Below are positions 5,389 to 32,799 of a stretch of DNA of 64,000 bases, piece by piece. The stretch is taken from assembly GCA_963838485.1 (NCBI GenBank), contig CAWIRY010000186.1, forward strand, positions 6,159 to 70,158. Reading direction: 5' to 3'. A program made the position numbers and the translations under genes. The number at the start of each line of letters is the position of its first letter. Position 1 is the first letter of the stretch. The DNA comes from an uncultured delta proteobacterium. GTDB lineage: Bacteria; Desulfobacterota; RBG-13-43-22. The notes under the pieces are model-generated. The model was not told where the DNA came from, searched no databases, and was given only the letters and a program-made list of their open reading frames with translations.

Positions 5389-5624
5389 TGAAAAAAGTTG
5401 ATCCAAAGAGGCTTTTTTTAAGGTCATTGCAGACTTGGCTGTTAGAGGAATGAATATCGTATATCCCCAACAGCTTCTATCCATATAAGAGCAATAATAG
5501 CATTAAACTCAGGTAAAATTGCGATCGGCGGGAGAGAAAGAATTCCGAACAACCGCAAATCCTGGATCCGGTTTTGGTTCCTGGTCTGGCCATCGTGACG
5601 ATGACTCGCCTAAGGTCATCAGAA

Positions 5625-6935: not shown

Positions 6936-6948
6936 CCCTATTGCTTTA

Positions 6949-7168
6949 TTATTAACCGTCTCATTCTATAGCTACTCGGTGGGGTAGCATTTTCTTCCGC
7001 CGGGGTGCCCCCAAGGGGCATGAGGGCTTAGTACGAAAATAGGGTTCGAGGATTCCAGGATTCGAGGGTTCAAGGGTTTTAACTTCCACGCCTTTCACTT
7101 GAATCCCTGACCCCTCGGCCCCTTGAACCCTTTTTCATTTTTCGTTGTGCCCGCTCCGAGCGGGGCAT
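6949..7168. repeat. Mosaic of short palindromic intergenic repeats (families R2, R3 and the TTATTAACCGTCT motif)
   Basis: TTATTAACCGTCTCAT (6949-6964) recurs at 53614 and, inverted, at 53707. The hairpin GTGCCCCCaaGGGGCAT+GAGGG (7005-7025) and its inverted partner GTGCCCGCtccgaGCGGGGCAT (7147-7168) resemble 53588-53608 and 60827-60858. The central core GGGTTTTAACTTCCAYGCCTTTCACTTGAATCC (7072-7106) recurs inverted at 23452-23486. Confidence 0.55.
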
Positions 7169-7212
7169 GTGAATTAATATGTATTGACTTTCATATCCAA
7201 AGGAGAGCGCTT

Positions 7213-8733
7213 ATGAGCAAAATCAAGAATGTGGTCATGTTGATGACCGATAGCTGGCAGTATAACTATACCGGCTGCTATGGAAACGATTGGATCAGGA
7301 CGCCGAACGTCGATGCCCTGGCCCGGGAGGGCACCGTGTTTGAAAATGCCTATGCGGAAGGGTTGCAGACCATCCCGGTCCGACGATCCCTGGCCACCGG
7401 CCGCTTCACCCTGCCCTTCGCCGGTTGGGTCAATCTGACCCCCCAGGAGACGTCCGTGGCCGACATCTGCTATCGCAACCACGTCCAATCCGCCCTCATT
7501 GCCGATTGTCCCATGCTGCATCTGGAAAAGTACGTCTACTCCCGCGGCTTCGATTACGTCCACTTCATCCGCGGACAGGAAGGGGACCATTTCTACGGCA
7601 ATGACCCCATCCGTCACGTCGATCCTCTGGACTTCCATAAACCGGTCTGCGATCTCGGCGCCACGACGGAAAGTGCCATCAGCCAGCTGACCCTCAAGGA
7701 ACTGAAGGGTTACCTGGCCCAACGACAGTTCTGGAAGACCGACAGGGACCAGCACGGGGCCCATACCTGCCGGGCGACCATCGATTATCTCGAGAGGGTC
7801 GTGGACAGGAGTAAACCATTTTTCCTCTGGGTGGATTTCTTCGATCCCCACGAGCCCTGGGACCCGCCGTCCGTCTACGATAGAGATCAAAAATGTCCCT
7901 ATAACCCGGATTATAAGGGCAAGAACCTGATTCTGCCCGTGCCCACGCCGTTGCACGAGGGCACGTACACCGAGGAGGAACTACATCACATCCGCATGCT
8001 TTTCGCCGAGAAAACCACCATGACCGACAAGTGGATCGGGGTGCTGCTCAACCGGATGAGGGAACTCGGATTGTTCGATAACACGATGATCATCTGGCTG
8101 TCCGACCACGGCGAACCCTTGGGTCACAAGGAGCACGGCCACGGGATCATGCGCAAATGCCGGCCCTGGCCTTACGAGGAACTGGTCCACGTGCCTATGG
8201 TCATCCGTCATCCCGACATCGAACCGCAACGGATCTCCTCCTTCATTCAGAACACCGACCTGACGTCGACGATTCTGGACTTCCTGGGCGTCAAGGACCC
8301 AGTGGCGGAAAAGGAGATGCAGGGCCGGAGCCTGCTGCCCCTCATAAACGGGGACGTCAAGAGGGTTCGGGACTTCGCTATCGCCGGCTACCACAACCTT
8401 TCCTGGAGCCTCTATACCGAGGATTGGTCTTACATTCACTGGCTCCATGAAGGGGAGTACAAGAACAGCCCTGAAGCGGCGATCGGGTTCTATGGGGATC
8501 TGATCAAGCAGATGGTTCCCGATATCTACCAACTGGGGCTAAAGCTGAGTCAGGAAGACCACATCTGGTCGTGCACGCCGGGCGCCAGGGCGGAGACGCC
8601 GACCGGTGACGAACTCTATTATCGAAAGAAAGACCCCTTCCAGTTGGAAAATGTGATCGGCGATGAGGGAAAAGTCGCCAACGATCTCTGGTTGCAACTT
8701 CGGGACACCCTGTTGGGGCTGAAGGTCAGTTAA
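7213..8733 (+). CDS. Sulfatase-family (alkaline-phosphatase superfamily) hydrolase with Thr at the nucleophile position
   Basis: ATG at 7213 preceded by aaggag. The N-terminus VVMLMTDSWQYNYTGCYGN..TPNVDALAREG..NAY matches the sulfatase fold. The signature reads LQ-T-IPVRRSLATGR where C/S-xPxR is expected (Thr codon at 7369-7371). No signal peptide. Confidence 0.75.
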   Translation: MSKIKNVVMLMTDSWQYNYTGCYGNDWIRTPNVDALAREGTVFENAYAEGLQTIPVRRSLATGRFTLPFAGWVNLTPQETSVADICYRNHVQSALIADCPMLHLEKYVYSRGFDYVHFIRGQEGDHFYGNDPIRHVDPLDFHKPVCDLGATTESAISQLTLKELKGYLAQRQFWKTDRDQHGAHTCRATIDYLERVVDRSKPFFLWVDFFDPHEPWDPPSVYDRDQKCPYNPDYKGKNLILPVPTPLHEGTYTEEELHHIRMLFAEKTTMTDKWIGVLLNRMRELGLFDNTMIIWLSDHGEPLGHKEHGHGIMRKCRPWPYEELVHVPMVIRHPDIEPQRISSFIQNTDLTSTILDFLGVKDPVAEKEMQGRSLLPLINGDVKRVRDFAIAGYHNLSWSLYTEDWSYIHWLHEGEYKNSPEAAIGFYGDLIKQMVPDIYQLGLKLSQEDHIWSCTPGARAETPTGDELYYRKKDPFQLENVIGDEGKVANDLWLQLRDTLLGLKVS

Positions 8734-8779
8734 CCAATAACGAATACCTCCGTTTTTAGGTTATAGAAAGGAAAGAATC

Positions 8780-10486
8780 ATGGCCAACCGGGCATACGAC
8801 CAACCAGCCTTGACGATCCCCGCAGAACTTACCGCGCATTCTCGAAAGATGGAGCAAAAAGTTTATCGGGTCACCGGGAATTATTATCTGGCGTTAGGAT
8901 ACGGCCTCGGCAGCACCCATATGATCGTGGGGGACAAGGGCGTCATCCTGATCGACCCGATCGAATGCGTTGAGAAATGCCGCGAGATCAACAGGGCCTT
9001 TCGGGAAATTACCGATAAGCCCGTTAAGGCCGTCATTTACACCCACATGCACGTCGATCACTTCTGGGGCGTCAAGGGCTTTGTTTCGGAGGAGGAAGTC
9101 CTCTCAGGACGATGTGCCGTCATCGCCCATGAAACCATGGTCCAAAATTTCGTCTTGAGCGCTGCCAACGGTCCCGGAATATACAATATGGTCCGAAGCG
9201 ACTATTCCTTCGGCAACTATCTGGAACTCGGGCCTGAAGGTCGGGTCAACAACGGCATCGGTCCGGACGTACTGGTAAAGAAAACGTCTTTTATTCCGCC
9301 CACCATGACCGTCAAGGACCAGTTGGACCTGGAAATCGCCGGAGTGAACATGCACATCTTCTGGGTCCCCAGTGAATGCGATGATGAAATTGCGGTCTGG
9401 TTCCCGGATATGAAGGTGCTCTGCAGTGCGGAGGTCATTCAGGGAGAGGCCTTCCCGAACCTGCACACCTTGCGCGGGACCCGGTACCGGGACCCCAGGC
9501 AGTGGTACAAGAGCATTGACCTTCTGCGCCGGTTTGACGCCGAATACCTGGCCCCTTCCCACGGACGACCCGTCTATGGCCGGGAAAACATCGCCGATGT
9601 TCTAAGGGCCTACCGGGATGCCATCCAGTTCGTGCACAACCAGACCATCCGTCTGATGAACGAAGGGTACACGGCCGACGAACTGGTCGGCCTCATCCGG
9701 CTTCCGGATCATCTGGCCCGGCACCCCTGGCTGGGCGAGTTCTACGGCACGGTCAAGCACGCGGTCCGGGAAATTTATCAAGGGGAGATCGGTTGGTTTA
9801 GTGGTGACCCCACCACGCTGGACCCTATACCCCCCCTGGAGTCCGCCGCCCGTCATCTGAAACTTATGGGCGGCCGGGACCCTTTGGTGGCTGAAGCGAA
9901 AAAGGCCTTGGAAACCGGGGATTACCAATGGGCCGCGGAACTGACTACCTATGTTATCCGGGTGGACAAAAACGATAAGGAGGCCCGCGGCGTCAAGGCG
10001 GAAGCGCTTCGGCAACTCGGGTATCGGACGATCAATACCAACTGGAGGTGCTGGTACCTGAGCTCGGCCCGCGAACTGGAGGGGGTGGGGCTGGATTATA
10101 CCGGCAGGCTTCACGGAGGGGAGATGATCCGGGCCCTTCCCGTGGCCGTCATCCTGGAAGCCATGGGCCTGCGTTTGATTCCGGAAAAGGCCCTTCCTGT
10201 TCACCTGACCGTGGGGTTCTGCTTTCCCGACCTCAAGGAGGCCTATGCTTTGGAAATTCGAATGGGCGTGGCCGAGTTCCATCAGAAATACCCGGACAAA
10301 GTGGATGCGGCTGTTACCATGGACCATACCCTGTTATTGGATATCATAACCGGCGTTACTTCGATTAAGGAAGGCCTCGAGTCCGGGGCCCTATCTTTGG
10401 ATGGCGACATCAGCCACTTAGCCGGGTTCTTCGCCTGTTTTGGAAAACCGAAAAGACCCGAAGATATTCAGTTGACGCTCCGGTAA
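8780..10486 (+). CDS. Metallo-beta-lactamase-fold alkyl/aryl-sulfatase (SdsA1/YjcS/Bds1 family)
   Basis: MBL motif YTHMHVDHFWG. The 568-aa length and the C-terminal region are consistent with a dimerisation domain plus an SCP2-like domain. No signal peptide is visible. Confidence 0.8.
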   Translation: MANRAYDQPALTIPAELTAHSRKMEQKVYRVTGNYYLALGYGLGSTHMIVGDKGVILIDPIECVEKCREINRAFREITDKPVKAVIYTHMHVDHFWGVKGFVSEEEVLSGRCAVIAHETMVQNFVLSAANGPGIYNMVRSDYSFGNYLELGPEGRVNNGIGPDVLVKKTSFIPPTMTVKDQLDLEIAGVNMHIFWVPSECDDEIAVWFPDMKVLCSAEVIQGEAFPNLHTLRGTRYRDPRQWYKSIDLLRRFDAEYLAPSHGRPVYGRENIADVLRAYRDAIQFVHNQTIRLMNEGYTADELVGLIRLPDHLARHPWLGEFYGTVKHAVREIYQGEIGWFSGDPTTLDPIPPLESAARHLKLMGGRDPLVAEAKKALETGDYQWAAELTTYVIRVDKNDKEARGVKAEALRQLGYRTINTNWRCWYLSSARELEGVGLDYTGRLHGGEMIRALPVAVILEAMGLRLIPEKALPVHLTVGFCFPDLKEAYALEIRMGVAEFHQKYPDKVDAAVTMDHTLLLDIITGVTSIKEGLESGALSLDGDISHLAGFFACFGKPKRPEDIQLTLR

Positions 10487-10573: not shown

Positions 10574-13095
10574 TTAGAAACTAATCCTCCGGTAAAAGAT
10601 TTTTTTTGCCCCTTCGGCGGTAATAATATACATCCCCACAATGACGGCCATCAAAGGAATAAAATACAACGGTAAGACCTCGAAGCCGAATATCTCTCCC
10701 AAAGGCGTATAGGGAATGAGCAGGGTGGCTATGGTCACCAACAAGGTGGCCAGAGTCAGGGCCTTACCCGGTTTGCTTTTAAAAAAGGGCTGGCGGGTGC
10801 GTATCACCAGCACGATTAAGGCAGCCGATATAACCGATTCGATAAACCAACCAGTTCGAAATTGAGCGGGTCGGGCCTTGAGGAGGAACAAAAGGATACC
10901 GAAGGTCAGGTAATCGAAGATCGAGCTGATCAAGCCGAAGGTAATCATAAAATTTTTAATAAACCGGATGTTCCAGCGCCTGGGTCTTTCCACCAATTCC
11001 CGGTCCACCCGATCGGTGGCAATGGTCAACTCAGGGAAATCGGTCAGCAGGTTGGTCAGCAGGATCTGCTTGGGAAGCAATGGAAGAAAGGTCAGAAAAA
11101 GGGAGGCCCCGGCCATGCTGAACATGTTGCCGAAATTGGCACTGGTAGCCATAAAGACGTACTTAAGGGTATTGGCAAAGGTGGTCCGGCCTTCACCGAT
11201 GCCCTGGGCCAGGACCTTTAGATCCTTTTCCAACAAGACGATATCGGCCGCTTCTTTGGCCACGTCCACGGCCTGATCGACGGAAATGGCCACGTCGGCG
11301 GCATGAAGGGCCGAGGCGTCGTTAATCCCATCCCCCATATAGCCCACGACATTGCCTGTTTTTCTCAAGGCCAGAATAATACGTTCTTTCTGGTTGGGTT
11401 CGACCTCGGCAAATATGTCCGTCTCGTTGACTTTTTGAGACAAGGCCCGATCGCCGGTCTTTTGAAGTTCTGGGCCGGTGACTATTTTCAGATTCGAAAG
11501 CCCCATCTGTCCGCCGATGGCAGCCGCTACCAGCCGGTTATCTCCGGTAATGATCTTTAAAGAGACCCCCAGATCCTTAAGTTGATTAATGGTCTCCACA
11601 ATTTCTTTTTTGGGCGGGTCAAAGAGGACCAGGAAGCCTAAAAAGATCAAGTCCCTCTCCTGGTCTCTGGTCAGGACGAGCCCAGGTTCCACCTCCCGAT
11701 AGGCCACCCCGAGCATGCGGAAGCCCTGTTGGCTAAAATCTTTGAAATGGGCTTGTATCTGCTCTTGACCTTGGGTGAGGTCTGCTTGGGTTCCGTCGGC
11801 CCTTTCCACTCGGGAACAGACGGTCAGGACATTGGATAAGGCTCCTTTGGTGATCACCAGGTGCCTGTCCCCCGGGAGACCAGGATGCTCAATCGTTTGC
11901 GAATAAAATCATAGGGCACTTCGTCGAGCTTCTGATAGCCGGAGAGATCAAAGGTACGGAAGTTGCAAATGGCCTGGTCGATAGGGTTGGTAAAGCCCGA
12001 CTCGTAATAAGCATTCAAATAGGCATAAAGCAGGACCTTTTCATTGTCCCGGCCTTCCCAATCCAAAGCCGAGTGGACCTTGACCGATCCTTCGGTTAAG
12101 GTTCCGGTCTTGTCGGAACACAAGACATTCATGCTACCGAAGTTTTCAATGGAGGATAAACGTTTGACAATAACCTTTTCCCGGGCCATTTTCTTGGCCC
12201 CATGGGCCAGGTTGATGCTGATGATGGCCGGTAAAAGCTGAGGAGTCAACCCGACCGCCAGGGCCAGGGAAAAAAGAAAGGATTCCAGGACCGGCCGGGC
12301 CAAGTAGACATTGATGGCAAATATGGCCATAACCAGGGTTAGGGTGACCTCCATAAGGAGATAGCCGAAATGTTTAACGCCGTGTTCGAATTCCGTCTCC
12401 GGGGCTCGGATTTTAAGCCTTTCCGAAACCTTGCCGAATTCGGTTTCTATTCCGGTGCGGACCACGAGGGCCTGGGCGTTGCCGCTGACCACATGGGTTC
12501 CCATAAAAAGGGTGTTGGTCCTTTTGGCCAGGGGGATTTCCGCGGTCAGGATCGCGGCCATTTTTTCAACCGGATAGGTTTCTCCGGTCAAAGAGGCCTC
12601 ATCCACAAAGAGATCTTTGGAATCCAGAATTAATCCGTCTCCGGGTATGACATCTCCGGCATTAAGCCGGATGATATCTCCGGGAACGATCTGTTGGATG
12701 GGGATTTCCTTAGCCGTTCCCTCACGCAAGACCGTGGACTTAATCTGGATTATGGCCAATAATTTTTTGATGGCATCGGCTGCTCCCCGTTCCTGCCAAA
12801 AGCCCAATAAACCGCTGACCAGAACAATAGTCAAGATAATCAGGGCATCGATCGAATCTTGAAGAAATAGAGATAACCCGGCTGCAAAGATCAGGATAAG
12901 GATGATGGGACTTTTAAATTGACCGAGCAGAAGGGTGAAGGCACCCGATTTTTTAGGCGGCTTGAGAAGATTATAGCCATATTCCTCAAGCCTCTGTTGA
13001 GCTTCTGTTTCAGTCAACCCTTGTGGAGAGGTTTTCATCTCCTGAAATAATTGATCAGGAGGGAGACTCCAAAAGGCAAGTATTTTTTGATTCAT
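10574..13095 (-). pseudogene. mgtA: Mg2+-importing P-type ATPase (MgtA type), split by a 1-nt frameshift as assembled
   Basis: ORF 11854..13095 carries the N-terminus, TGE region, GLTPQLLPAII and CSDKTGTLT. ORF 10574..11857 carries GDGINDASAL and the C-terminal TM helices. Reading ..ILVS(P)GDRHLVITKGA.. restores continuity if one base is added in the tcccggggg run near 11857-11875. Confidence 0.8.
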
Positions 13096-13116: not shown

Positions 13117-15536
13117 TTACAATCCGAACCTTCTGAACAGATAATATTTGGGGAAATCAATCCCGAGCGTAAAGAGTACGGAGAATCCTAGAACGGCCAC
13201 GACCTGATAGGGGGTGACGGATGGGACAAAGATACCGTAGATACCCAGCAGGGCAAAGCCGATCAGGGTCGCTGCACTCAGGATAATTAATTCCCGGCTC
13301 GGGAATGAGGACCAGAAGTGTCTCCGCTCCCTTACGATCAATACCCTGAACTGACTGTTGAACACCAGGTTCAGCATGACCAGGGTGCGCAGCCTTTCCC
13401 ATTCCAAATGGAAATAGTTCAAACCCATCAGGATCACCAGCAGGTCTTCCACAATCAGAAGCATGCCCGGAACGAGCGAGGCCAGAGTAATATTCTTGAC
13501 ATTCCACTGGTTCGGGTTGGGCGTATGCTTCACATGGTCGGTTGCCAGGGACATGGTTACGAAATCGTTGGCAAACACCAGCAGCGCCATCCCGAGGAGA
13601 GAGAGCACAATTTCATGGAGCCAGAAGAAACCCAAGGTCAGTAAACCAACAAATTCGATAACTTTGGTGACCTTGTTAAAACCCAGGTGAGCATTCGCTG
13701 ATAGGTCTGCCTGCTTATGGTTATGGTATCAATGATGACACCGATACCCGGTTCGGTCAAAACCACGCTGGCAGAGGCCTTGGCCACGTCAGTGGAATTG
13801 CTCACCGCTACTCCCATCTCGGCCTGCTTCAACGCCGGCGCATCATTGACTCCGTCGCCGGTCATCCCGACCATGTGCCCCCTGGATTGCAGAAGCTTGA
13901 CGATTTTATACTTGTCCTCAGGATATATCTCGGCAAACCCGTCGCTTTCTCCGACCACCTTGACCCGTTCATCTTCGCTTAAGGCCTCGATATCCGCCAT
14001 CCGGATAATGTTACCGCCGATTCCTGTCTGAACGGCGATCTCTCTACCTATGGCGATATTGTCGCCGGTAAGCATCATCGGCTTTATCCCCAGTCTTCTG
14101 GCTTCCTCTATGATGCGCTTCGAATCCGGCCTGGGCGGATCAGCCAGAGGCAGCAATCCCGCCAGTTTGAGATCGTTCAGGTCATCTCCTTCCGATCGGG
14201 CCACGGCAATCGTTCTGAATCCTTTCCGGGAAAACGCTTCGATCATCCCGTCGGCCTTCTCCCGGTCCGCTTGGTTTATTCCTTGGCACAGGGATAGGAC
14301 CACCTGGGCGGCGCCTTTAACGACCCTGAAGCGCTTTCCGGCCCCTTCGATAATCGCCTCCGTTCTCTTAATGGACGGATTAAAAGGGGTGTATTCGATC
14401 TGCCGGTAGCCGCTAAGATCAAATCCTTTTATTTTAGCATATTCGATTACCGCCAGGTCTATGAGGTCCATACCCTCCTCCTGAGAGGCTAAGGCGGCTA
14501 AGGCAAAAACATCCTCTTGCCTATATTCGGAGAAGGGCAGGCCGTCGATAACCGATAATCTATTTTGAGTTATCGTCCCGGTCTTGTCGAGGCAAAGGAC
14601 ATCAATGGATGCGGCATCCTCGATGGATGCCAGTCTGGTCACCAGCGCTCCCCTTTTGGCCAGCTCCATGGCTCCGACCGACTGGACTATGGACAGAACG
14701 GCCGGAAGGGCCACAGGGACCGCCCCCATGAGGAATATCACGGCGAAGGTCAGTATTAATAGAATACCGGCATGGATCACCAGGGCATATAGGGAGACTA
14801 AGATCGCGGCGGCTATACCCAGAACCATCATATTTTTGACTATAGCCATCATCACCTCGTCCTGATGGGATTTCGGCCTGGCTATTTTGACCAATTCGGT
14901 TGTTTTACCGAAATAGGTATTGGCTCCGGTATTGACCACCAGACCTCTGGCCTCTCCCCGCACCACTACCGAGCCGGCGTAGAGGATATCCGATGGATGG
15001 CTCTTTACAGGCAGGGATTCTCCCGTCAGGGCCGATTGATCAACGGAAAGTTCGCCACTCATCAATACCGCATCGGCCGGTACGATATCCCCAAGTCCGA
15101 CAGTGATAACGTCTCCGGGCACGATCTCTTTAGCCTCTTTTATGACCCATTTCCCGTTTCGCAAAACCTTGGCCTTGATGGCCAACTTTTTCTTGAGAAG
15201 CTCGACGGCCCTTTGGGAGCCCCTTGAGTGGAGGTGACCTATGACGGCATTGACCGTCAAAAGAACAAAAATGATGATTCCTTCCAGGTCATGTTTCAGG
15301 ACGAAAGAAAGCGCCATGGCCAGCTCCAGCAGCCAGGGCATTGGCCCCCAGTACCGCAGCAGGAATTCAAGAAAGGGATTCTTCTTTTTCTCTATGATTT
15401 CGTTGTATCCGAACCTCTCAAGGCGCTTTTCGACTTCGGACTCCGTGAGACCCGTTATGGAGGCCTCCAGGGACCTGAGGGTCGCCTCCATGGAGATTTT
15501 TTTATACTCCGAAGTGCTTCTGACTTTATCATCCAT
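13117..15536 (-). pseudogene. Type IIIA (plasma-membrane H+-ATPase-like) P-type ATPase, split by a 1-nt frameshift as assembled
   Basis: ORF 13638..15536 has LTGESLPV, CLDKTGTITQNRL and TGDGVNDAPALKQAEMGVAV. ORF 13117..13635 holds the last TM helices. An extra A in gttttaa(a)caagg (about 13676-13681) gives a continuous ..RMLTWVLNKVTKVIEFVGLLTLGFFWLHE.. Confidence 0.75.
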
Positions 15537-21258: not shown

Positions 21259-23389
21259 CTAAGCATTCTGCAAGGCCTTGAGATAAAATTTATCAATATA
21301 CTCTTTAACCATCCGGCGGGCAGAGAACCTGGGGGCGTTGGTTTTTATGGATTCTTTCATCACCCGGATCCAGCCGTGGGGCAGGCCATTATTGGACAGT
21401 TGGTAAAATAAAGGGATGATTTGTTTTTCCAACAGCTCATAGATCGCCTGGGCATCTTGGGGATCTCGGTCCCCGGCTATTTCTTTTTCACCAAAGGCCC
21501 AGCCGTTTTTCCCGGTATATCCTTCCACCCACCACCCATCCAGGATACTCAAATGAGGGACCCCGTTCAGGGCGGCCTTCATCCCGCTGGTCCCGCTGGC
21601 TTCCATGGGGGGCAGGGGATTGTTCAGCCAGACGTCGACCCCGTGTACCAGGTATTGGGCCAATTGTTCCCCGTAATCTTCGACAAAGGCGACCCGCCCT
21701 CCCATCTGGAAATCTTTGGGCGGCGTTAAACACCCGCTGCAGGACCCGTTTTCCCGGATCATCGGCCGGGTGGGCCTTGCCGGCAAAGATGATTTGTATT
21801 GGCCGCCGGGGATCATTGAGCATTTTTTTAAATCGCTCCAGGTCCTGAAAAATCAAATCGGCCCTTTTATAAGTGGTGAAACGGCGGGCAAACCCGAGGG
21901 TCAGGACCGACGGGTCCAGCAAGGTCCCTCCGCTTAAAATGGTCGAGGGGTTGACCCGGTCGGCGGCCCAGCGCTGGCGGGCCTTCTCCCGGATGATGTT
22001 GATCAATTTTAACTTCAGCCAGTAATGGGTCTTCCAAAGCTCCTCATCGGGGATGGTTTCCACCTTCTCCCAGACCAGGGGGTCATCATGGTCGGCCAGC
22101 CAGTCCGGCCCGAGATATTTATTAAAAAGGAGTTCCATCTTTGGTTCAATCCAGGTCGGGACATGAACGCCGTTGGTGACGTGATCGATCGGCACGTTCT
22201 CTTCCGGCATTTGGGGCCAAAGCCCCTTCCACATGCGCCGGGCCACTTCTCCGTGTCTTTTACTGACCCCGTTGCTAAAACCAGAGAGCCTGAGGGCCAG
22301 GGCGGTCATGTTAAACCCGGAAGTTGGATCCTCAGGATGGATCCCCAATTTGAGGAAGGCATCGTGATCAATGCCTAAGGTCGGCCAATAGGAACGGAAA
22401 TATTTTTCGATCAGGGGGAAAGGAAAGATATCATGGCCGGCCGCGACCGGAGTATGGGTGGTAAAGACCGAGGTGGGCCGCACCCGTGAAATAGCTTCCT
22501 CATAAGGCATTCCCTCCTGGACCCGCTCCCTGACCCGCTCCAGGAGGGCGAAGGCGGGATGTCCCTCGTTCAAATGTAAGACCGTATGCTTAATGCCTAA
22601 AGCCGAAAGCACTTCATAGCCGCCGATGCCCAGGACGATCTCCTGGCGCAAACGCTGCTCCAGGTCGCCAATATAAAGATGGGCCGATATCCCCCGGTTC
22701 CAGGGATCATTGATCGGGATATCCGTATCCATCAGATAGAGCGAGATGCGGCCTACGGCCACTTTCCAAACGGCCACATGGATCGGGGGTTCGATAAAAG
22801 GGATCTTGACGACCATTTGGTCTCCGGCCTCACTCAAAACCCGGGTAATCGAGGCCGCATCACGATCCAGGATTTCATCCGGATTTTCCTGCCAGCCGTC
22901 CTCGCGAATCTGCTGCCGCAGATAACCCTCCGGATACATAAACCCTACGGACACCATGGGCACCCGGAGATCGCTACATTCTTTAAGATAGTCACCGGCT
23001 AAGAACCCCAAGCCTCCGGCATAAAAAGGCAGGGAATTATGCAGCCCGTATTCGGCCGAAAAATAGGCGATAAAATGGGTTTCCGCATCGGGGATCCTCT
23101 CTACAAAACAATTTTCCTTCGTCTCCTGATCCCGGCGGAATTGTTCCAGGACCGAATCATAGTGTTGAAGATATTCCGGATTATGGGCAGCTTCCTCAAG
23201 AATTTCACCGGGAAGCTCAGAAAGGACCTGGACCGGATTATGCCCGCTCTCCTTCCAGATCTGGCGATCCAACATTTTAAAGAGCATCCTGGCGGCCGGA
23301 TGCCAGCTCCACCAGAGGTTGGCGGCAATTTCATTAAGACCCTTTAGCTTTTCCGGAATATGAGGGAATTGTTTTTTGCTGTCATCCAT
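21259..23389 (-). pseudogene. glgP: Alpha-glucan (glycogen/maltodextrin) phosphorylase of the GlgP TIGR02094-like type, frameshifted as assembled
   Basis: ORF 21488..23389 has an N-terminus (..NLWWSWHP..) typical of alpha-glucan phosphorylases. ORF 21259..21816 carries ..GGRVAFVEDYGEQLAQYLVHGVDVWLNNPLPPMEASGTSGMKAALNG.. The frames join as ..VFNAAKDFQMGGRVAF.. if one base is removed near 21708-21724. Confidence 0.8.
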
Positions 23390-27819: not shown

Positions 27820-28023
27820 CGAGGGTGAGGGGGGTTTATATCGAACATTATTATGAAACCCTTCTTAAAATCAAATCCATTGCTTTTTGTCCTTCCTCAT
27901 GATAATTTTTTCATCGATCGGCAATATTCTTATCCCGCATCAGCAAGACGCTCTGCGAGCAAAACAGAAAGTGCATTCTGGGCAGCAAGCGTCAGGGAGC
28001 TTTAACCCAAGGGAGGTACATCC

Positions 28024-30429
28024 ATGACCTGGGCATCAAACTGCACGGTAGTCTCACCCACTCAGTTGTGGTCGGCCGCTTCGACCCTTTCTCCCCGCGT
28101 GCAACAGCTTCGCCGGCAATTCTGGTCCTTTTATGAGCGGGAATACACCAACGAAGTGCGCGCTTACACCACCGGCACGCCCTGGGATGTGGTCTATTCC
28201 ATCTGGAGTTGGACCAATGTGCCCGAGATCGCCCTGTTCCAGCAGGGGTTCCGCAGTTATCTCCGGGCCGCGGCCAAGACCGTCGAGTTACCGTCCGATT
28301 TTTGTGAAGAGCCTCTGGTCGTTCGCCAGGCCCTTTTCTTTCGTCAAGTCGTACAGGCCTGCTTGCCGGTTGAAATCCTGCAGGGGGAGCTGATTGTCGG
28401 CTCCCATTTCAATACGGCCCTTTCGCGCTGCCTCAAAAAAGATGAAGCCCGTTCCCGGGACCGGGAAGAACAAAAATTCCTCGAAGCTTGGAATGAACTC
28501 AACAAGGCCGGGGTGGGAAACTGCGGCGCCGTTCCCGGTCACCTGGTGCCCAATTATCCCAAGGTCCTGAGGGTCGGCTGGAAAGGGATTGAAGATGAGG
28601 CCCGGGTTATCTTCAATGATCCGGCGAGTTCAATGGAGCAAAAGAACCTGGCCCGGGCCGTCATGATTTCCGCCGAGGCCGCCCGCGATCTGGCCAGTCG
28701 CTATGCCGATAAAGCCCAAGGCCTGGCTGAGATTGAAGCCGACCCGATTCGCTGGGAAGAGCTCATCGGGATCGCCCGCATCTGCCAAAAAGTCCCCTGG
28801 CTGCCGCCCGAAACATTCCCAGAGGCCCTGCAAGCCCTCTGGTTCACCCACATGTTGGCCATGGCCGCTGAAAGCTATCCGGGGCCGGGCCTGTCGCCGG
28901 GACGGGTGGACCAGTACCTCTATCCCTATTACCGGGCGGATCGAGAGGCTGGCCGCCTGACGAATCAGGCCGCCCGCGAGTGGCTGTACTGCTGGTGGAT
29001 CAAGCACAACTATGTTTATGATTATCAGGGCTGGACCGGCACCAATCAGGGCATCAATTCATCCTTCGGCCAGCTCATCACCCTGGGCGGCATGGATGCC
29101 CAGGGCAACGACGCCTCCAATGAATTGACCTTTCTGATGCTCGAGGTGATCGAGGAGATGAACCTCCTGGAGCCCAAGCCCAACATCCGCATCCACGCCC
29201 GCACCCCCGATAAATTACTCGACCGCCTGGTGGCCATGTTGGCCAGAGCCCAGGGTTCCCCCTTTCTGATCAATTTTGACGAGAATGCCATGGCCGGGCT
29301 TGGATGGCAGGGCCTGCCTGAAGAACGCCTCTGGGATTACGCACCGGTGGGCTGTCTGGAGAACACCCTGGCCGGCGATGACCGCTCGGGCACGGTGGAT
29401 GTGAACCTGAATCTGGCCAAGGCGATCGAGCTGGTTTTAAACGATGGCCGCGATATGGCCACGGGCAAACGTATCGGACCGCGCACCGGTGACCCTAAAG
29501 AGTTTCCAGGGTTTCCCCAGTTTATGGAGGCCTTTAAACAACAACTCCAAGCCATCCTCTTGAAGCTCATCGCCGCCAACAACCTGGCCGACGCCGGCCG
29601 GGCCCGGTGGGAACCGGTGTCTTACTTGAGCGCCCTGGTGGACGGCTGTCTGCAAAGCGGCCGTGATTGCAACGCCGGCGGGGCTCAATATAATTTTCTG
29701 ACCGTGGAAGGGGTGGCCCTGGCCACGGTGGCCGACAGCCTGGCGGCCATAAAAAAGCTGGTCTTTGAGGATCACCAGGTGGAAATGGGGAATTTGGTTG
29801 AAGCGATCCAGGCCAATTTTGAAGGCCAGGAAAGCCTGCGCCGGATGTTGCTGACCAAGGCCCCCAAGTACGGCAACGACGATGGATATGCCGATGAGAT
29901 CGCCCGGGAGGTCAGCCGCTTTTGGACCGAAGAAGCCTTCAAACATTTTTCTTCCACGGGGAAGCGCTACCGGGGCGGTTATCTTTCCTGGAATTACTGG
30001 ATTGCCTATGCGCCGTCAACGGCCGCAACGCCGGACGGCCGCCGCCGGGGACAGTTTCTCTCCAACGCCGTCTGTCCGGTCAACGGGGCCGATTGCCAAG
30101 GGCCGACCTCGGTCATCAAGAGTGTGGGCAAACTGGGACTGGAGACCGCACCCAACGGGTCCAGCCACACCATGAGTTTCAGCCCGACCTTGTTTCGCAG
30201 CCCCGAGCAACGCCAAAAACTGAAGGCGCTTTTACGGGCCTACGGCCAGGTGGGCGGAACCTGCCTGCAGGTCAACATGATAGACGCCGAAACCCTGCGG
30301 GAGGCCCAAAAGTTTCCCGACGAATATCAGAATTTGCTGGTGCGGGTTACGGGTTACAACGCCTATTTTGTCGGCCTGGGCAAGGAAATTCAGGACGAGA
30401 TCATTGCCCGTGAGTCGCACCCGGTTTAA
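28024..30429 (+). CDS. Glycyl radical enzyme (PFL-like superfamily), eliminase/dehydratase-like active-site pattern, substrate unknown
   Basis: 801 aa. The C-terminal glycyl radical motif is ..LLVRVTGYNAYFVGL.. The Cys loop ..APVGCLENT.. has a C-x-E arrangement, as in the 1,2-eliminase-type GREs. Strong RBS (gggagg). An activase gene follows. Confidence 0.85.
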   Translation: MTWASNCTVVSPTQLWSAASTLSPRVQQLRRQFWSFYEREYTNEVRAYTTGTPWDVVYSIWSWTNVPEIALFQQGFRSYLRAAAKTVELPSDFCEEPLVVRQALFFRQVVQACLPVEILQGELIVGSHFNTALSRCLKKDEARSRDREEQKFLEAWNELNKAGVGNCGAVPGHLVPNYPKVLRVGWKGIEDEARVIFNDPASSMEQKNLARAVMISAEAARDLASRYADKAQGLAEIEADPIRWEELIGIARICQKVPWLPPETFPEALQALWFTHMLAMAAESYPGPGLSPGRVDQYLYPYYRADREAGRLTNQAAREWLYCWWIKHNYVYDYQGWTGTNQGINSSFGQLITLGGMDAQGNDASNELTFLMLEVIEEMNLLEPKPNIRIHARTPDKLLDRLVAMLARAQGSPFLINFDENAMAGLGWQGLPEERLWDYAPVGCLENTLAGDDRSGTVDVNLNLAKAIELVLNDGRDMATGKRIGPRTGDPKEFPGFPQFMEAFKQQLQAILLKLIAANNLADAGRARWEPVSYLSALVDGCLQSGRDCNAGGAQYNFLTVEGVALATVADSLAAIKKLVFEDHQVEMGNLVEAIQANFEGQESLRRMLLTKAPKYGNDDGYADEIAREVSRFWTEEAFKHFSSTGKRYRGGYLSWNYWIAYAPSTAATPDGRRRGQFLSNAVCPVNGADCQGPTSVIKSVGKLGLETAPNGSSHTMSFSPTLFRSPEQRQKLKALLRAYGQVGGTCLQVNMIDAETLREAQKFPDEYQNLLVRVTGYNAYFVGLGKEIQDEIIARESHPV

Positions 30430-30496
30430 TGGAATCCTAAAAAGTATCCATCCGGAAACTATAACTTTCAGGATGGAGCGCTCAGCCATCAGCTTT

Positions 30497-30565
30497 TAGC
30501 TTTCAGCAAAATCCTTTATCATTGGGGAGTTTGGCTAAATGCTGACCGCTGACTGCTGAAAGCTA
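30497..30565 (+). repeat. Stem-loop built from gctgaaagc-type repeats between the GRE and activase genes
   Basis: TAGCTTTCAGC (30497-30507) pairs with GCTGAAAGCTA (30555-30565). Flanking gctga/cagc repeats extend the arms (30483-30570). Confidence 0.45.
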
Positions 30566-30613
30566 TCAGGAAATCTTGGATTTCCGGATGAAAACTAAAA
30601 AGGTTGACAGACT

Positions 30614-31558
30614 ATGACTTCCGGCCTGATCTTCAATATCCAGCAATTCAGCACCGAAGACGGACCAGGCATCCGAACCACGGTCTTTCTTAAAGGCTGT
30701 CCCTTGCGCTGCCCCTGGTGTCACAACCCGGAAGGCCTGCGCCTCAGGCCCGACCTGATGTGGTACGATGTGCGCTGCATCGGAGCCAGAGATTGCCTGA
30801 GCGCCTGCCCGGAAAAGGCCTTATCCCTCTCCTCGGAAGGGATACGGATCGACCGGGAGCGCTGCACCTTGTGCTGCCTGTGCGAGAAGGCCTGCCCGGC
30901 AGCGGCCCTGGAGGTGATCGGCCGTCCCTTTACCCCCGATGAATTGATGGACGAACTTTTGAAAGATCAGGTTTTCTATGAGACCTCAGGCGGAGGCATC
31001 ACCTTCAGCGGCGGCGAGCCGATGTTGCAGGGGGAATTCCTCAGCCAGGTTATGATGCTCTGTAAACAGGCCGGGATGCACGTAGCCCTGGATACCAGCG
31101 GTGCCGTCTCCTGGGAGCGCTTTGAGCCGGTCTTACCCTGGGTGGACCTGGTGTTGTTCGATTTAAAAATCATGGACAGTGAGCGTCATCAACAGGCCAC
31201 GGGCCTCTCAAACACCATCATCCTGGAAAATGCCGGGCGAATGGCTGCCAGTGGAAAACCGATGTGGATTCGAACGCCGATCATCCCCGGTTTTACCGAT
31301 GATGCGGAAAATATCCGGGCTATCGGCGGTTTTATCAGTCAAGCTTTGCCCACGGTGCAGCGTTGGGACTTGCTGGCCTATACCAATTTGGGAAAACCCA
31401 AATATCATCGTCTCGACATGCCCTATTGGTTGGAAAGGACGCCACCGTTGACCCGAGCCGAAATGGAAACCTTACATCAGGCCGCTGTTGAACTGGTGCC
31501 GACGGCTTTATGGTCCGGGGCGGCCAGGCAGAATCAATCGCCATCATCGGAAGACTGA
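30614..31558 (+). CDS. Glycyl-radical enzyme activating enzyme (radical SAM) with a ferredoxin-like 2x[4Fe-4S] insert
   Basis: FSTEDGPGIRTTVFLKGCPLRCPWCHNPE (CX3CX2C). The insert carries CIGARDCLSACP and CTLCCLCEKACP. GGGITFSGGEP SAM motif. Confidence 0.9.
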   Translation: MTSGLIFNIQQFSTEDGPGIRTTVFLKGCPLRCPWCHNPEGLRLRPDLMWYDVRCIGARDCLSACPEKALSLSSEGIRIDRERCTLCCLCEKACPAAALEVIGRPFTPDELMDELLKDQVFYETSGGGITFSGGEPMLQGEFLSQVMMLCKQAGMHVALDTSGAVSWERFEPVLPWVDLVLFDLKIMDSERHQQATGLSNTIILENAGRMAASGKPMWIRTPIIPGFTDDAENIRAIGGFISQALPTVQRWDLLAYTNLGKPKYHRLDMPYWLERTPPLTRAEMETLHQAAVELVPTALWSGAARQNQSPSSED

Positions 31559-31560
31559 CT

Positions 31561-32370
31561 ATGTCTCAGCTCGAACAGACACCAGGATTGTTGACCTCCC
31601 TGCGCGGGGAGATGACGCCCAAGTTTCTGGCCACCCGGTCGGCCGTCGGCGTCCCCAACGTCGTCCCGTGCATCTCTTTGTTGCCGGCCGAGGATCAGGA
31701 GGACACGCTTTTCTTTGGAAATTTCCTTCTGCGCAAAAGCATCAAGAACCTAAAGGAAGACCGGCGGGTCAGTATCCTGGTGGTCACACCGGAACTTAAG
31801 GGATGGATTCTCAAGGGAGATTTTATCGAATTCCAGCGTACCGGCCCCTATGTGGACCTTCAAAAAAGCAGCCCCCACCTGCGTTATAACGCCTATACCG
31901 GTGTGCGCAATGCCGGCCTTATCCGCGTGAACCGGGTGGAAGGCACCTTTTCTATCTCCAAGCTCCAGGTGATGAGGGATTATCTGCTGGCCCGTCTGGC
32001 GGCCTTCGGGCAAGGAAATAACCAAAAAACAGTATCAGGCCATGGCCTGATCATTCCCCTGGCCGTGCGGCGCGAATTCGCCAGAATGGCCGCGGTCAAG
32101 GTCCTGGCCTGGGTCAGAACGGACGGATACCCCCAGGTCATCCCCTCCCTTTCGTTGCAGCCTGCGGGTCAGACGAAACTGGTCTGCCGGAAAACCCAAA
32201 GCCTACCCTCGCCTCCGGTCAATGCCCTGGTGGCCGGCAATATCCTCACCTTTGAGGCCGTTTCTTATCAAATCAAAGGGCGCTGGTCGGATTCCAACCG
32301 AACCGGTGTACTCCGGGTTGAAGAGATTTATGCCGGCGGCCCGCCCTATCCGGGAGGACGAATCGTCTGA
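31561..32370 (+). CDS. Tandem pyridoxamine-5'-phosphate-oxidase-like (FMN-binding split-barrel) protein
   Basis: The ATG at 31561 lies 2 nt after the activase stop (the ORF track start at 31510 is unlikely). There are two halves of about 135 aa, each with a split-barrel-like pattern (..PNVVPCISLL..RRVSILVV.. and ..AVKVLAWV..GYPQVIPS..). Fold-level call only. Confidence 0.5.
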   Translation: MSQLEQTPGLLTSLRGEMTPKFLATRSAVGVPNVVPCISLLPAEDQEDTLFFGNFLLRKSIKNLKEDRRVSILVVTPELKGWILKGDFIEFQRTGPYVDLQKSSPHLRYNAYTGVRNAGLIRVNRVEGTFSISKLQVMRDYLLARLAAFGQGNNQKTVSGHGLIIPLAVRREFARMAAVKVLAWVRTDGYPQVIPSLSLQPAGQTKLVCRKTQSLPSPPVNALVAGNILTFEAVSYQIKGRWSDSNRTGVLRVEEIYAGGPPYPGGRIV

Positions 32371-32595: not shown

Positions 32596-32799
32596 ATGAG
32601 ACATTTCAGCGATGACGTTTTAAAAGCGGATGAAGTATCGAGATGGCTGAGAATCCCTAAGTCAACCATTTATAAGCTCTGCATAGAAGGTAAGATCCCT
32701 GGGACAAAAATCGGCCGACATTGGCGGTTTGACCGTAAAGATATTGAGGTTTGGTTCAAGAAAAGAATTAAAAATGGAAACCAGGAGATTAGCTTATGA
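32596..32799 (+). CDS. Excisionase-family / MerR-like helix-turn-helix DNA-binding protein
   Basis: From the ATG at 32596: MRHFSDDVLKADEVSRWLRIPKSTIYKLCIEGKIPGTKIGRHWRFDRKDIEVWF.., the classic excisionase-type HTH. Its stop overlaps an ATG (ATGA at 32796-32799). Confidence 0.7.
   Translation: MRHFSDDVLKADEVSRWLRIPKSTIYKLCIEGKIPGTKIGRHWRFDRKDIEVWFKKRIKNGNQEISL

Follow-up and report, generated by a model that had tools for sequence, protein, structure and literature searches.

The window analysed here, a 64,000-nucleotide stretch of contig CAWIRY010000186.1 from an uncultured delta proteobacterium, carries a co-oriented three-gene module encoding an oxygen-sensitive glycyl radical enzyme (GRE), its activase and a protein of two tandem split barrels, referred to below as the partner. 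The module is the local representative of a large, cross-domain and uncharacterised GRE superclade, and the trio marks an anaerobic reaction outside any named pathway. What is new here is that the superclade is set apart by a distinctive invariant pocket and by a nearly obligate split-barrel partner. The reading that we favour, tentatively and with somewhat less than an even chance of being right, is that of a self-contained module in which a dehydratase-type eliminase would act on a hydroxylated substrate and the partner would serve as a flavin-dependent carbonyl reductase. The three-gene layout of the preliminary description, which had been made from the letters of the window without database searches, was borne out in its coordinates, its motifs and the 2-nt gap between the second and third genes.

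28024..30429, + strand: GRE gene (801 aa)
30614..31558, + strand: activase gene (314 aa)
31561..32370, + strand: partner gene (269 aa; start ATG at 31561)

The partner ATG lies 2 nt past the activase stop codon (GAAGAC-TGA-CT-ATG in the DNA). A program-made list of open reading frames (ORFs) had put the partner start at 31510; the conserved start is the ATG at 31561, whose Met is the first residue in 36/36 homologues of alignment A1.

Both GRE domains were matched (PF02901, 458 bits; PF01228, 88 bits). The glycyl motif RVTGY (G777) and the thiyl loop GCLEN (C444, with E446 two residues on), which had been read earlier from the sequence, were located and are near-invariant among 120 family members. 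The scores of the GRE fall below the cut-offs of the curated models for HypD (NF043068; 459.9 vs 1100 bits), HpsG (NF048011; 435 vs 1000), HpfG (NF048009; 392 vs 1000), CutC (TIGR04394; 392.5 vs 1050), the PflD type (344 vs 1109), indoleacetate decarboxylase (285 vs 1100) and HPAD (246 vs 1150). The score against the pyruvate formate-lyase (PFL) model (TIGR01255) is 95 vs 994 bits, and the GRE has a single Cys in place of a Cys-Cys pair. These equivalog scores amount to 9-44% of the cut-offs, and the score against the subfamily model for PFL2-3 and glycerol dehydratase (TIGR01774) is 499.2 vs 678.2 bits. Membership of the IslA/IseG, HpsG or HpfG groups is indicated neither by the scores, which lie below the cut-offs, nor by the nearby genes, among which TRAP transporter and sulfite reductase genes are missing.

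Among solved structures, the best match is glycerol dehydratase (GDH; E 1.9e-118, 400 bits; 29% identity over a full-length structural alignment), and CutC, Archaeoglobus fulgidus PFL2, HypD and propanediol dehydratase (PD) rank next at nearly the same level, whereas BSS and MASS score 213-246 bits (BSS 213). The AlphaFold2 model of the GRE (pLDDT 87.4) gave Foldseek TM-scores of 0.80-0.81 at 27-29% identity to GDH, PD, HypD and CutC, and of 0.74 at 24% identity to the X-succinate synthases (BSS, MASS). By these scores the GRE is nearer to the eliminases than to any other class of GRE. Among 1.84 billion cluster representatives, only a handful align with it over the full length, at 45-52% identity; the remaining ones, outside the superclade, reach at most ~39% and align only from residue ~171, so that the N-terminal 170 residues and several loops are clade-specific.

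The best 120 homologues are 73-96% identical over the full length and come from metagenome-assembled genomes (MAGs) labelled Chloroflexi/Chloroflexota and Bathyarchaeia. The Bathyarchaeia contig is archaeal, since its neighbouring genes encode ribosomal protein L40e and TFX. A genome scan with the single GRE sequence gave only seven close loci, all in Thermodesulfobacteriota or 'delta proteobacterium' MAGs, and the wider sample was drawn from a metagenome scan and contig look-ups. A search seeded with one sister-clade member listed Njord-, Jord-, Thor- and Promethearchaeota, Nezhaarchaeales, Dehalococcoidia, Abyssubacteria and Desulfobacterales; the sister GRE clades (Thor-, Jord- and Njordarchaeota, Abyssubacteria, Dehalococcoidia) are 44-60% identical to the window GRE. 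The clade is abundant in peat, soil, groundwater and sediment metagenomes. The names given to homologues by the JGI and NCBI pipelines include 'trans-4-hydroxy-L-proline dehydratase', 'formate C-acetyltransferase' and pyruvate formate-lyase. Two full-length relatives of the superclade look catalytically degenerate and may be pseudo-enzymes or radical enzymes of a non-canonical kind: P0252 has G-F-H-E for G-C-L-E and R-I-F-G-Q for R-V-T-G-Y, and P0248 has C-P-G for C-L-E and no glycyl motif.

The predicted catalytic residues of the GRE lie at the following positions.

28540..28542, + strand: His173 codon, counterpart of GDH His164 in pairwise HMMER alignments to 1r8w, 5i2a and 2f3o
29353..29361, + strand: C444-L445-E446 codons of the thiyl loop, within G-C-L-E-N-T
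30343..30357, + strand: R774-V-T-G777-Y778 codons of the glycyl radical site, with Thr776 in place of the usual Ala

H173, C444 and E446 are invariant in 126/126 superclade sequences. His173 aligns with GDH His164 and with the corresponding His of PD and of the A. fulgidus enzyme. A C-x-E loop is also present in HPAD. A single Cys with Glu two residues on is a feature of GRE eliminases and of GRE isomerases, and is thus not exclusive to the former, while GDH His164 (PD His166) is the proposed general acid for the leaving hydroxyl (PMC13450708). All 126 superclade members have T776, where 12 other eliminase-like GREs have Ala or Ser. The invariant set further comprises Y285, G287, G289, S291, G349, Q350, T457, V458, D459, L654, S655, W656, N657, S714 and G777, and at most of the superclade-invariant positions the twelve other eliminase-like GREs differ. 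N447 and T448 are near-invariant and superclade-specific.

The pocket was mapped by pairwise alignments to GDH, CutC, A. fulgidus PFL2, HypD and PD. Glycerol is contacted in GDH by H281, S282, Y339, D447 and Y640, and the substrate contacts in HypD are D278, F340, Y450 and T645. In these alignments GDH H281/S282 and HypD D278 correspond to P288/G289 of the GRE; GDH Y339, PD F344, HypD F340 and CutC F395 to G349; GDH D447 to V458, flanked by T457 and D459; and CutC Y506 and HypD Y450 to N461. The strand with GDH Y640/S642 and HypD L643/T645 corresponds to L654/W656. The residues that replace the five GDH contacts (P288, G289, G349, V458 and L654) are invariant across the superclade. As aligned, the pocket is more polar than those of known eliminases (Gln350, Asn447, Thr448, Thr457, Asp459, Ser655, Trp656, Asn657, Ser714), with the smaller side chains Pro288, Gly289 and Gly349 where known eliminases have His/Ser/Asp and an aromatic residue. 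The catalytic apparatus would accordingly be of the C-O-cleaving dehydratase type, with a larger binding surface rich in Asn, Thr, Ser, Gln and Asp and with one Trp, and the predicted pocket points to a substrate that carries hydroxyl groups and exceeds glycerol in size, for example a polyol, a sugar-like molecule or a derivative of glycerol. In a test set beforehand, the GRE, which is only 27-39% identical to any solved or characterised GRE, did not cluster with any characterised enzyme: all curated cut-offs were missed, the best structure is 29% identical, and the substrate-contacting residues of GDH, HypD and CutC are replaced. The suggestion that the trio matches no GRE system with a name also stands, as scores lie far below every curated cut-off.

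The partner is co-inherited with the GRE in a nearly obligate manner. GRE, activase and partner occur in this order at 7/7 deltaproteobacterial genome loci, in Bathyarchaeia loci and in three Chloroflexota-type loci, so that the conserved trio spans Thermodesulfobacteriota, Chloroflexota and Bathyarchaeia. The partner accompanies the GRE in 13/14 GRE-seeded loci, the exception being a contig truncated within the activase gene. With the partner as seed, a metagenome scan gave 80 loci, of which the 23 with at least 4 kb of upstream sequence were judged informative for the GRE. Activase lies upstream of the partner in 39/48 loci with at least 1 kb upstream, and the GRE in 20/23 with at least 4 kb; the operon is compact in 13 of these 20, and in many of the compact ones stop and start codons overlap. 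In a mirror-tree comparison of pairwise distances (n = 26), the correlation with the GRE was r = 0.92 for the partner and r = 0.94 for the activase. The genome-neighbourhood check proposed in the preliminary description was run from both the GRE and the partner side, and the partner proved to be kept next to orthologues in three phyla and also in sister clades in Asgard archaea, which had been set as a second test. The sister loci are arranged as follows.

L098 (P0247 seed): GRE, activase, diverged tandem barrel of 282 aa (23% identity, E 1e-17)
L099 (Thorarchaeota): GRE, activase, 274-aa tandem barrel
L103-L105 (Jordarchaeales): GRE, activase, 263-aa protein
L106/L107 (P0487 seed): GRE, activase, 276-aa protein
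L100/L101 (P0403 seed): GRE, activase, single 139-aa barrel
L097 (P0246 seed): single 150-aa barrel upstream of the GRE
L102 (Abyssobacteria): GRE followed by a 140-aa barrel; activase not adjacent

The partner is also found in sub-modules with no GRE nearby, namely at L020 4559-7141 (SCP2, M24 hydrolase and partner, behind a NACHT NTPase gene) and at L019 158-4559 (M24, DUF6206, class-III aminotransferase and partner). It may thus also work with other enzymes.

Sequence searches with the window partner were nearly silent. Pfam PNPOx_N (PF01243) matched residues 22-86 only, at 24.3 bits vs a cut-off of 28.1; there was no match among NCBIfam models, and none of significance among solved structures with either the single sequence or a profile. 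The AlphaFold2 model, built with 37 homologues, has a pLDDT of 86.6 and a pTM of 0.86 and shows two beta-barrels (residues 21-131 and 179-259) with a helix and a disordered linker between them.

31621-31953, + strand: N-terminal split barrel of the partner (AlphaFold2 model)
32095-32337, + strand: C-terminal split barrel of the partner (AlphaFold2 model)
32329-32367, + strand: C-terminal tail Y-A-G-G-P-P-x-P-G-G-R, invariant in the alignment and disordered in the model

With barrel-sized units, Foldseek matched HupZ, the Desulfovibrio vulgaris flavin mononucleotide (FMN)-binding protein, FMN-bound YviC and mycobacterial F420-binding proteins, with a probability of 1.0 and target-normalised TM-scores of ~0.7-0.77. 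A comparison of the two halves with hhalign shows that they are related (probability 89.6, E 1.9e-6). The earlier description of two tandem split-barrel (PNPOx-like) modules is correct, because the two modelled barrels, the fold matches and the relatedness of the halves agree. The segment F-G-N-F-L-L-R-K-S resembles what we take to be the PNPOx phosphate-binding motif, F-x-T-N-x-x-S-R-K, and the partner probably binds flavin, as its modelled fold and this motif suggest. No His or Cys is invariant among the 37 partner sequences, and this speaks against an Fe-S cluster or a heme site with a His ligand. The conserved axial His that marks the C-terminal loop of HutZ/HugZ is missing from the same 37 sequences; HupZ itself lacks that loop (PMC11602992).

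A link to better-known proteins is provided by the single-domain partners beside sister-clade GREs. These pass Pfam PNPOx_N (46.9, 34.0 and 30.6 bits), are 35-42% identical to the N-terminal barrel of the window partner, match HupZ by sequence (E 2.8e-6) and carry the same C-terminal P-x-P-G-x-R tail. Since they combine the family score, the HupZ match and the tail, the tandem partner is read as a fused pseudo-dimer of an ancestral single-domain partner.

Beyond the trio, the glycerol genes are the most repeated metabolic signal around the module. A glpK gene (701-812 bits, cut-off 590) stands beside it in L042, L068, L089 and L091, in differing arrangements; the glpK genes near the module are only 47-82% identical to one another and represent three divergent lineages. 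A glpD gene in L042 passes its cut-off (362 vs 360 bits), and L068 has a 28%-identical glpD homologue. The sister-clade operon L097 combines glpK with a three-gene set (a glycerol-3-phosphate oxidase/GlpA-like gene, a FAD oxidoreductase and DUF1667) and has a stand-alone GpsA C-terminal domain between GRE and activase.

L042 3279-6410: glycerol genes
L068 12277-15207: glycerol genes
L089 and L091, next to the partner: glycerol genes
L097 5700-10394: glycerol genes

Chloroflexota-type operons take three forms: GRE, adenosine deaminase, activase, SCP2, M24 hydrolase and partner; GRE, in some cases a transglutaminase-like gene, adenosine deaminase, activase, GH13 amylase and partner; and a form with DUF6206 and a class-III aminotransferase before the partner. 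The adenosine deaminase (TIGR01430, 305 bits, cut-off 217) lies between GRE and activase at five loci and overlaps the activase start in at least four of them. Its constant place immediately before the activase gene suggests that it may remove 5'-deoxyadenosine, a by-product of activation.

L011 10439-11467: adenosine deaminase gene
L012 11315-12340: adenosine deaminase gene
L063 6343-7374: adenosine deaminase gene
L064 2028-3053: adenosine deaminase gene
L081 5498-6526: adenosine deaminase gene

A thiamine pyrophosphate (TPP) enzyme resembling acetolactate synthase or Xsc (~400 bits against TIGR00118, below cut-off) flanks the GRE at L095 4321-6099 and L106 4918-6684; at L095 it occupies the place where the activase is expected. 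Together with the PfkB and class II aldolase genes of L102, it prompted the idea of an inositol substrate, which was dropped as no IolD was found among the 25 best NCBIfam models listed. A hydroxyectoine or other amino-compound substrate was likewise set aside. The M24 match to ectoine hydrolase is weak (45 bits vs a cut-off of 613), and M24 hydrolase and class-III aminotransferase occur only in some Chloroflexota-type loci, so that the idea is left as speculation.

In the mechanism that we favour, homology shows that the activase cleaves S-adenosylmethionine and puts a radical on Gly777, from which it moves to Cys444. The Cys444 thiyl radical would take a hydrogen from the hydroxyl-bearing carbon of the substrate, Glu446 would deprotonate the hydroxyl of that carbon, and His173 would protonate the neighbouring oxygen leaving group, as the identity of these three residues suggests. 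Return of the hydrogen would yield a carbonyl product, the net reaction being a 1,2-elimination in the form of a dehydration or of C-O cleavage within the molecule. A 1,2-elimination is proposed because the Cys/Glu/His set is that of the glycerol, propanediol and hydroxyproline dehydratases. Pocket and gene context point to a polar, hydroxylated and possibly glycerol-derived substrate. The tandem partner, as a fused pseudo-dimer of the PNPOx/HupZ-type barrel, would act directly with the GRE; most likely it would capture and reduce the reactive carbonyl, and thereby take over the aldehyde-containment role of a microcompartment. A product-capturing enzyme is favoured because the many invariant polar residues of the partner look like a specific ligand site. 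The proposal of a new substrate class or a flavin-dependent follow-up step in the preliminary description is supported: no named system fits, and the follow-up step is one of two live roles for the partner.

Several observations weigh against this mechanism. The window partner remains below the Pfam cut-off (24.3 vs 28.1 bits), flavin binding being read from fold and motif; its best relative in both fold and sequence, HupZ, is a heme-binding protein of uncertain function; and it has no NAD(P)H-binding domain, so that the source of reductant is unexplained. The genes beyond the trio vary from locus to locus (adenosine deaminase, M24 hydrolase, SCP2, GH13 amylase, class-III aminotransferase, the acetolactate-synthase-like TPP enzyme, glp), and none of these variable neighbours occurs in the 64-kb window. 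The association itself has exceptions: in L020 and L038 the partner has neither GRE nor activase within 6-9 kb upstream, in L027 it has an activase upstream and no GRE nearby, and the sister locus L095 has a GRE with neither partner nor activase within 8 kb. AlphaFold2 is least confident at the pocket loops (337-347, 655-660 and 683-689), so the pocket is described here from sequence alignment.

It is possible, though on the unlikely side, that the partner is instead an accessory redox component, either a stoichiometric subunit or a low-potential electron donor to the [4Fe-4S] cluster of the activase, as flavodoxin is for PFL activase. A generic role of this kind gains from the constancy of the partner while the neighbourhoods change: apart from the activase, no other gene accompanies the GRE through very different surroundings, it is translationally coupled to the activase in compact operons, and it co-evolves with the GRE as tightly as the activase does. 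Its tail is invariant yet disordered, as docking peptides typically are, the best fold matches include small split-barrel FMN proteins of Desulfovibrio, and redox-cofactor subunits of unclear role exist in other GREs (PMC13450708). However, no accessory subunit is known for any eliminase-type GRE, the hosts encode many ferredoxins, and the many invariant polar and aromatic residues of the partner suit a ligand site better than the surface of an electron carrier. A purely activase-directed role is also at odds with L102, where the partner lies beside the GRE with no activase nearby. In L020 and L038 it lies apart from both, which also counts against the accessory reading. An improbable extension would make the partner a flavin-bearing stoichiometric subunit that feeds electrons to the GRE, the superclade then performing net reductive C-O cleavage on a small polyol or sugar-like metabolite, comparable to anaerobic ribonucleotide reductase. 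If true, reductive C-O cleavage would amount to a new functional GRE class and to the first function for archaeal PFL-like GREs, including the Asgard enzymes to which hydrocarbon activation or formate formation is at present ascribed.

As to the substrate, the GRE would be a glycerol dehydratase on a rather improbable alternative, in which glycerol gives 3-hydroxypropanal and the partner is a new 3-hydroxypropanal/acrolein reductase; the two would make up the reductive branch of glycerol fermentation, with GlpK/GlpD as the oxidative one. In sequence and structure alike, the B12-independent glycerol dehydratase is indeed the best match, the Cys/Glu/His triad is kept, and a true glpK is adjacent in three divergent lineages, including the sister-clade operon, with glpD or another glycerol-3-phosphate dehydrogenase alongside it in L042, L068 and L097. 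Yet the GDH residues that we take to contact glycerol (H281, S282, Y339, D447 and Y640) are replaced, invariantly, across the superclade, the TIGR01774 score is 499 bits vs a cut-off of 678, most loci have no glycerol genes, and neither glp nor dhaT genes occur in the 64-kb window. The genuine adenosine deaminase between GRE and activase in L011, L012, L063, L064 and L081 could point to nucleoside or 5'-deoxyadenosine-derived material, the ribose 2',3'-diol being dehydrated after the deaminase has prepared the substrate; uracil-DNA glycosylase genes near the module in L008 and L012 would fit, and a sugar ring would sit well in a polar pocket that has an invariant Trp. We consider this very improbable, as the deaminase is confined to one Chloroflexota-type lineage, directly before the activase, where it may just clear 5'-deoxyadenosine, is absent from the window and most loci, and has no genes for a nucleoside transporter, phosphorylase or kinase alongside it. 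The name Ass/Bss has been given to Asgard GREs that are 29-33% identical to AssA/BssA and 33-38% to A. fulgidus PflD (PMC8163825), the superclade includes Thorarchaeota members, and a single catalytic Cys is shared with the X-succinate synthases; an alkyl- or benzylsuccinate synthase that adds hydrocarbons to fumarate is nevertheless scarcely credible here. The GRE scores 400 bits to an eliminase vs 213-246 and has TM-scores of 0.80 vs 0.74, the Glu two past the Cys and the dehydratase His are present, the pocket is polar and not hydrophobic, and the conserved extra gene encodes a split barrel, with no small beta or gamma subunit genes. Just as hard to credit is an ordinary HypD, CutC, IslA/HpsG, PD, YbiW/PflD or PFL member with a passenger third gene. 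HypD is the best NCBIfam match and pipeline names such as 'trans-4-hydroxy-L-proline dehydratase' and 'formate C-acetyltransferase' stand on homologues, but the equivalog scores stay at 9-44% of the cut-offs, the presumed HypD contacts D278, F340, Y450 and T645 have become P, G, N and W, and there is no Cys-Cys pair. Outside the superclade, the nearest cluster representatives (50% identity) reach no more than 39% identity, with alignments that begin only at residue ~171, and the partner is kept across domains of life.

The activase belongs to a well-defined family (TIGR02494, 343.6 bits vs a cut-off of 174), has Radical_SAM and Fer4 domains, starts 184 nt past the GRE and is 62-79% identical in relatives.

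30698-30721, + strand: activase C29-x3-C33-x2-C36 (CxxxCxxC), read as a motif
~30773-30913, + strand: ferredoxin-like two-cluster insert of the activase, from domain matches
30430..30613, + strand: GRE-activase spacer, 184 nt, one long hairpin

The RNA fold of the spacer has an energy of -61.2 kcal/mol (z = -5.0). In a related MAG, a copy with 72% identity occurs at a site unrelated to the operon (L003 19917-20053), and the hairpin is absent from compact operons, where the genes overlap. For these two reasons the spacer is probably an inserted, mobile-looking palindromic repeat element and not a conserved part of the module, and a role of the hairpin as a conserved regulator was rejected.

Upstream of the GRE, two putative expression signals were located.

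27880..27908, + strand: promoter-like block, TTGCTT, spacer, (TG)ATAATTT, ~115-145 nt 5' of the GRE start
28011..28016, + strand: ribosome-binding site GGGAGG, 7 nt before the GRE ATG

The promoter-like block AAAATCAAGAnCATTGCTTTTTGATCCTCCTCATGATATTTT is kept in the deltaproteobacterial relatives L001, L002, L004 and L007 and partly in L006, and is tentatively read as a promoter; a simple sigma-70 scan gave no call at this position. The conserved upstream block measures ~45 nt and is followed in relatives by a short palindrome, CCTGC-TTCA-GCAGG, both arms of which are changed in L007. GGAGG is kept at the ribosome-binding position in 6/7 relatives. A riboswitch or leader RNA 5' of the GRE was considered and rejected: the sole Rfam match at E <= 1 was a chance one to the other strand, and RNAalifold, run with the 5' leaders of six relatives, showed no net covariation at an energy of -3.7 kcal/mol.

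The neighbours of the trio in the window are DUF2196, a FadH/Old Yellow Enzyme (OYE)-type flavoenzyme and TrpD upstream, and a small helix-turn-helix gene, a histidine kinase, a response regulator with an HD domain and a GGDEF protein downstream. No shell-protein, aldehyde dehydrogenase, pyrroline-5-carboxylate (P5C) reductase, TRAP transporter or sulfite reductase gene is adjacent, which agrees with the earlier statement that companion genes of known GRE pathways are missing. With a single PduA-like sequence as the probe, no microcompartment shell gene was matched in the 64-kb window. No firm link ties the OYE/FadH gene to the module: of ~47 GRE loci, only 3 have a homologue close to the trio, and its distance and identity vary among them.

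Other features of the window were noted in passing. An unlisted 66-aa ORF (MRHFSDDVLKADEVSRWLRIPKSTIYKLCIEGKIPGTKIGRHWRFDRKDIEVWF...) at 32597-32797 (+ strand), between the partner gene and the histidine kinase, looks like an excisionase/MerR-type helix-turn-helix protein. The alpha-glucan phosphorylase-like ORF at 21488-23389 (- strand; DUF3417 and Phosphorylase) has ~90 final residues that look out of frame and are rich in Arg, Gly and Pro, which suggests a frameshift, from a pseudogene or an assembly error. A P-type cation ATPase at 10574-13095 (- strand) is split into an N-terminal half (11854-13095) and a C-terminal half (10574-11857) that overlap by 4 nt, and adjoins a second P-type ATPase (13638-15536) with no Cation_ATPase_C domain match. 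A possible cluster for the utilisation of organosulfate esters occupies 5574-10486 (+ strand), where consecutive genes encode an MFS transporter, an arylsulfatase-type sulfatase and an alkyl sulfatase of the metallo-beta-lactamase type, the last with a C-terminal domain that resembles SCP2.

Some of the most difficult anaerobic reactions are carried out by GREs. Each newly assigned GRE clade has revealed a new metabolic route (choline to trimethylamine, hydroxyproline, isethionate, anhydro-sugars), and a GRE system with a near-universal split-barrel partner is new in its architecture. A full-text literature search for GREs together with split-barrel or PNPOx-like proteins found nothing relevant, and a 2026 review of known GRE eliminases and isomerases describes no flavoprotein partner, 'flavin' appearing only for the host flavin-containing monooxygenase (FMO; PMC13450708). 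According to the same review, no PFL-like GRE from archaea has been functionally characterised and whole GRE clades lack experimental validation (PMC13450708); unplaced GRE clades have also been noted in sediment metagenomes (PMC6258724). Asgard GREs at ~30% identity to AssA/BssA were interpreted as alkyl- or benzylsuccinate synthases (PMC8163825), and we tentatively infer that these published 'Ass/Bss' proteins belong to the present superclade. Since the active-site evidence points to a dehydratase-type enzyme, metabolic reconstructions may need revision, both where they follow the PFL and hydroxyproline-dehydratase names given by pipelines and where they read hydrocarbon activation into Asgard genomes.

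The closest known systems are the glycerol dehydratase DhaB1/DhaB2 of Clostridium butyricum (1R8W/1R9D) and PD (5I2G, 9RCO), with which the GRE shares the ten-stranded fold (TM-score 0.80-0.81). Like DhaB1/DhaB2, the module has an adjoining activase with a ferredoxin-like insert, a Cys-x-Glu loop, a counterpart of His164 and an occasional linkage to glycerol genes. Unlike DhaB1, to which it is 29% identical, the GRE has RVTGY and not RVAGY, a superclade-specific Y-P-G-P-G insertion, 170 N-terminal residues that do not align by sequence, and replacements at H281, S282, Y339, D447 and Y640; its module has an obligate split-barrel partner and lacks a 1,3-propanediol dehydrogenase and a microcompartment. 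HypD (6VXC/6VXE) and the N-methyl-hydroxyproline dehydratases HpyG and HpzG share the C-x-E loop, HypD is the best curated match, and the order of dehydratase and then P5C reductase in the HypD pathway parallels the proposed pair of GRE and reductase. The differences from HypD are the score (460 bits vs a cut-off of 1100), the loss of Asp278, Phe340, Tyr450 and Thr645, and a follow-up gene that encodes a split barrel and not ProC. A. fulgidus PFL2/PflD (2F3O; E 3.9e-110, TM-score 0.80) is likewise eliminase-like and archaeal, and is the sole structurally characterised archaeal PFL-like GRE, with a disputed function as glycerol dehydratase or alkylsuccinate synthase. It lies outside the superclade, lacks the YPGPG, LSWN and RVTGY signatures in pairwise alignment, and has no known split-barrel partner, its locus not having been examined here.

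Split barrels of this fold are normally dimeric, a state that the tandem fusion in the partner would mimic. In fold, the partner resembles Streptococcus pyogenes HupZ (5ESC), the D. vulgaris FMN-binding protein (1AXJ), Lactococcus YviC (7EG5) and mycobacterial FDOR proteins. It differs from all four in its tandem fusion, its unique P-x-P-G-x-R tail and the absence of a significant sequence match for the window protein, and an obligate coupling to a GRE was found for none of them in the literature searched. The multisubunit GREs (HPAD with gamma; BSS with beta and gamma; MASS with beta, gamma and delta) also have a conserved small extra protein that is likely to bear a cofactor. Those subunits are Fe-S or rubredoxin-like proteins of 60-90 aa in decarboxylases and X-succinate synthases, whereas the partner described here is a 140-aa barrel or a 270-aa tandem protein in an eliminase-like clade.

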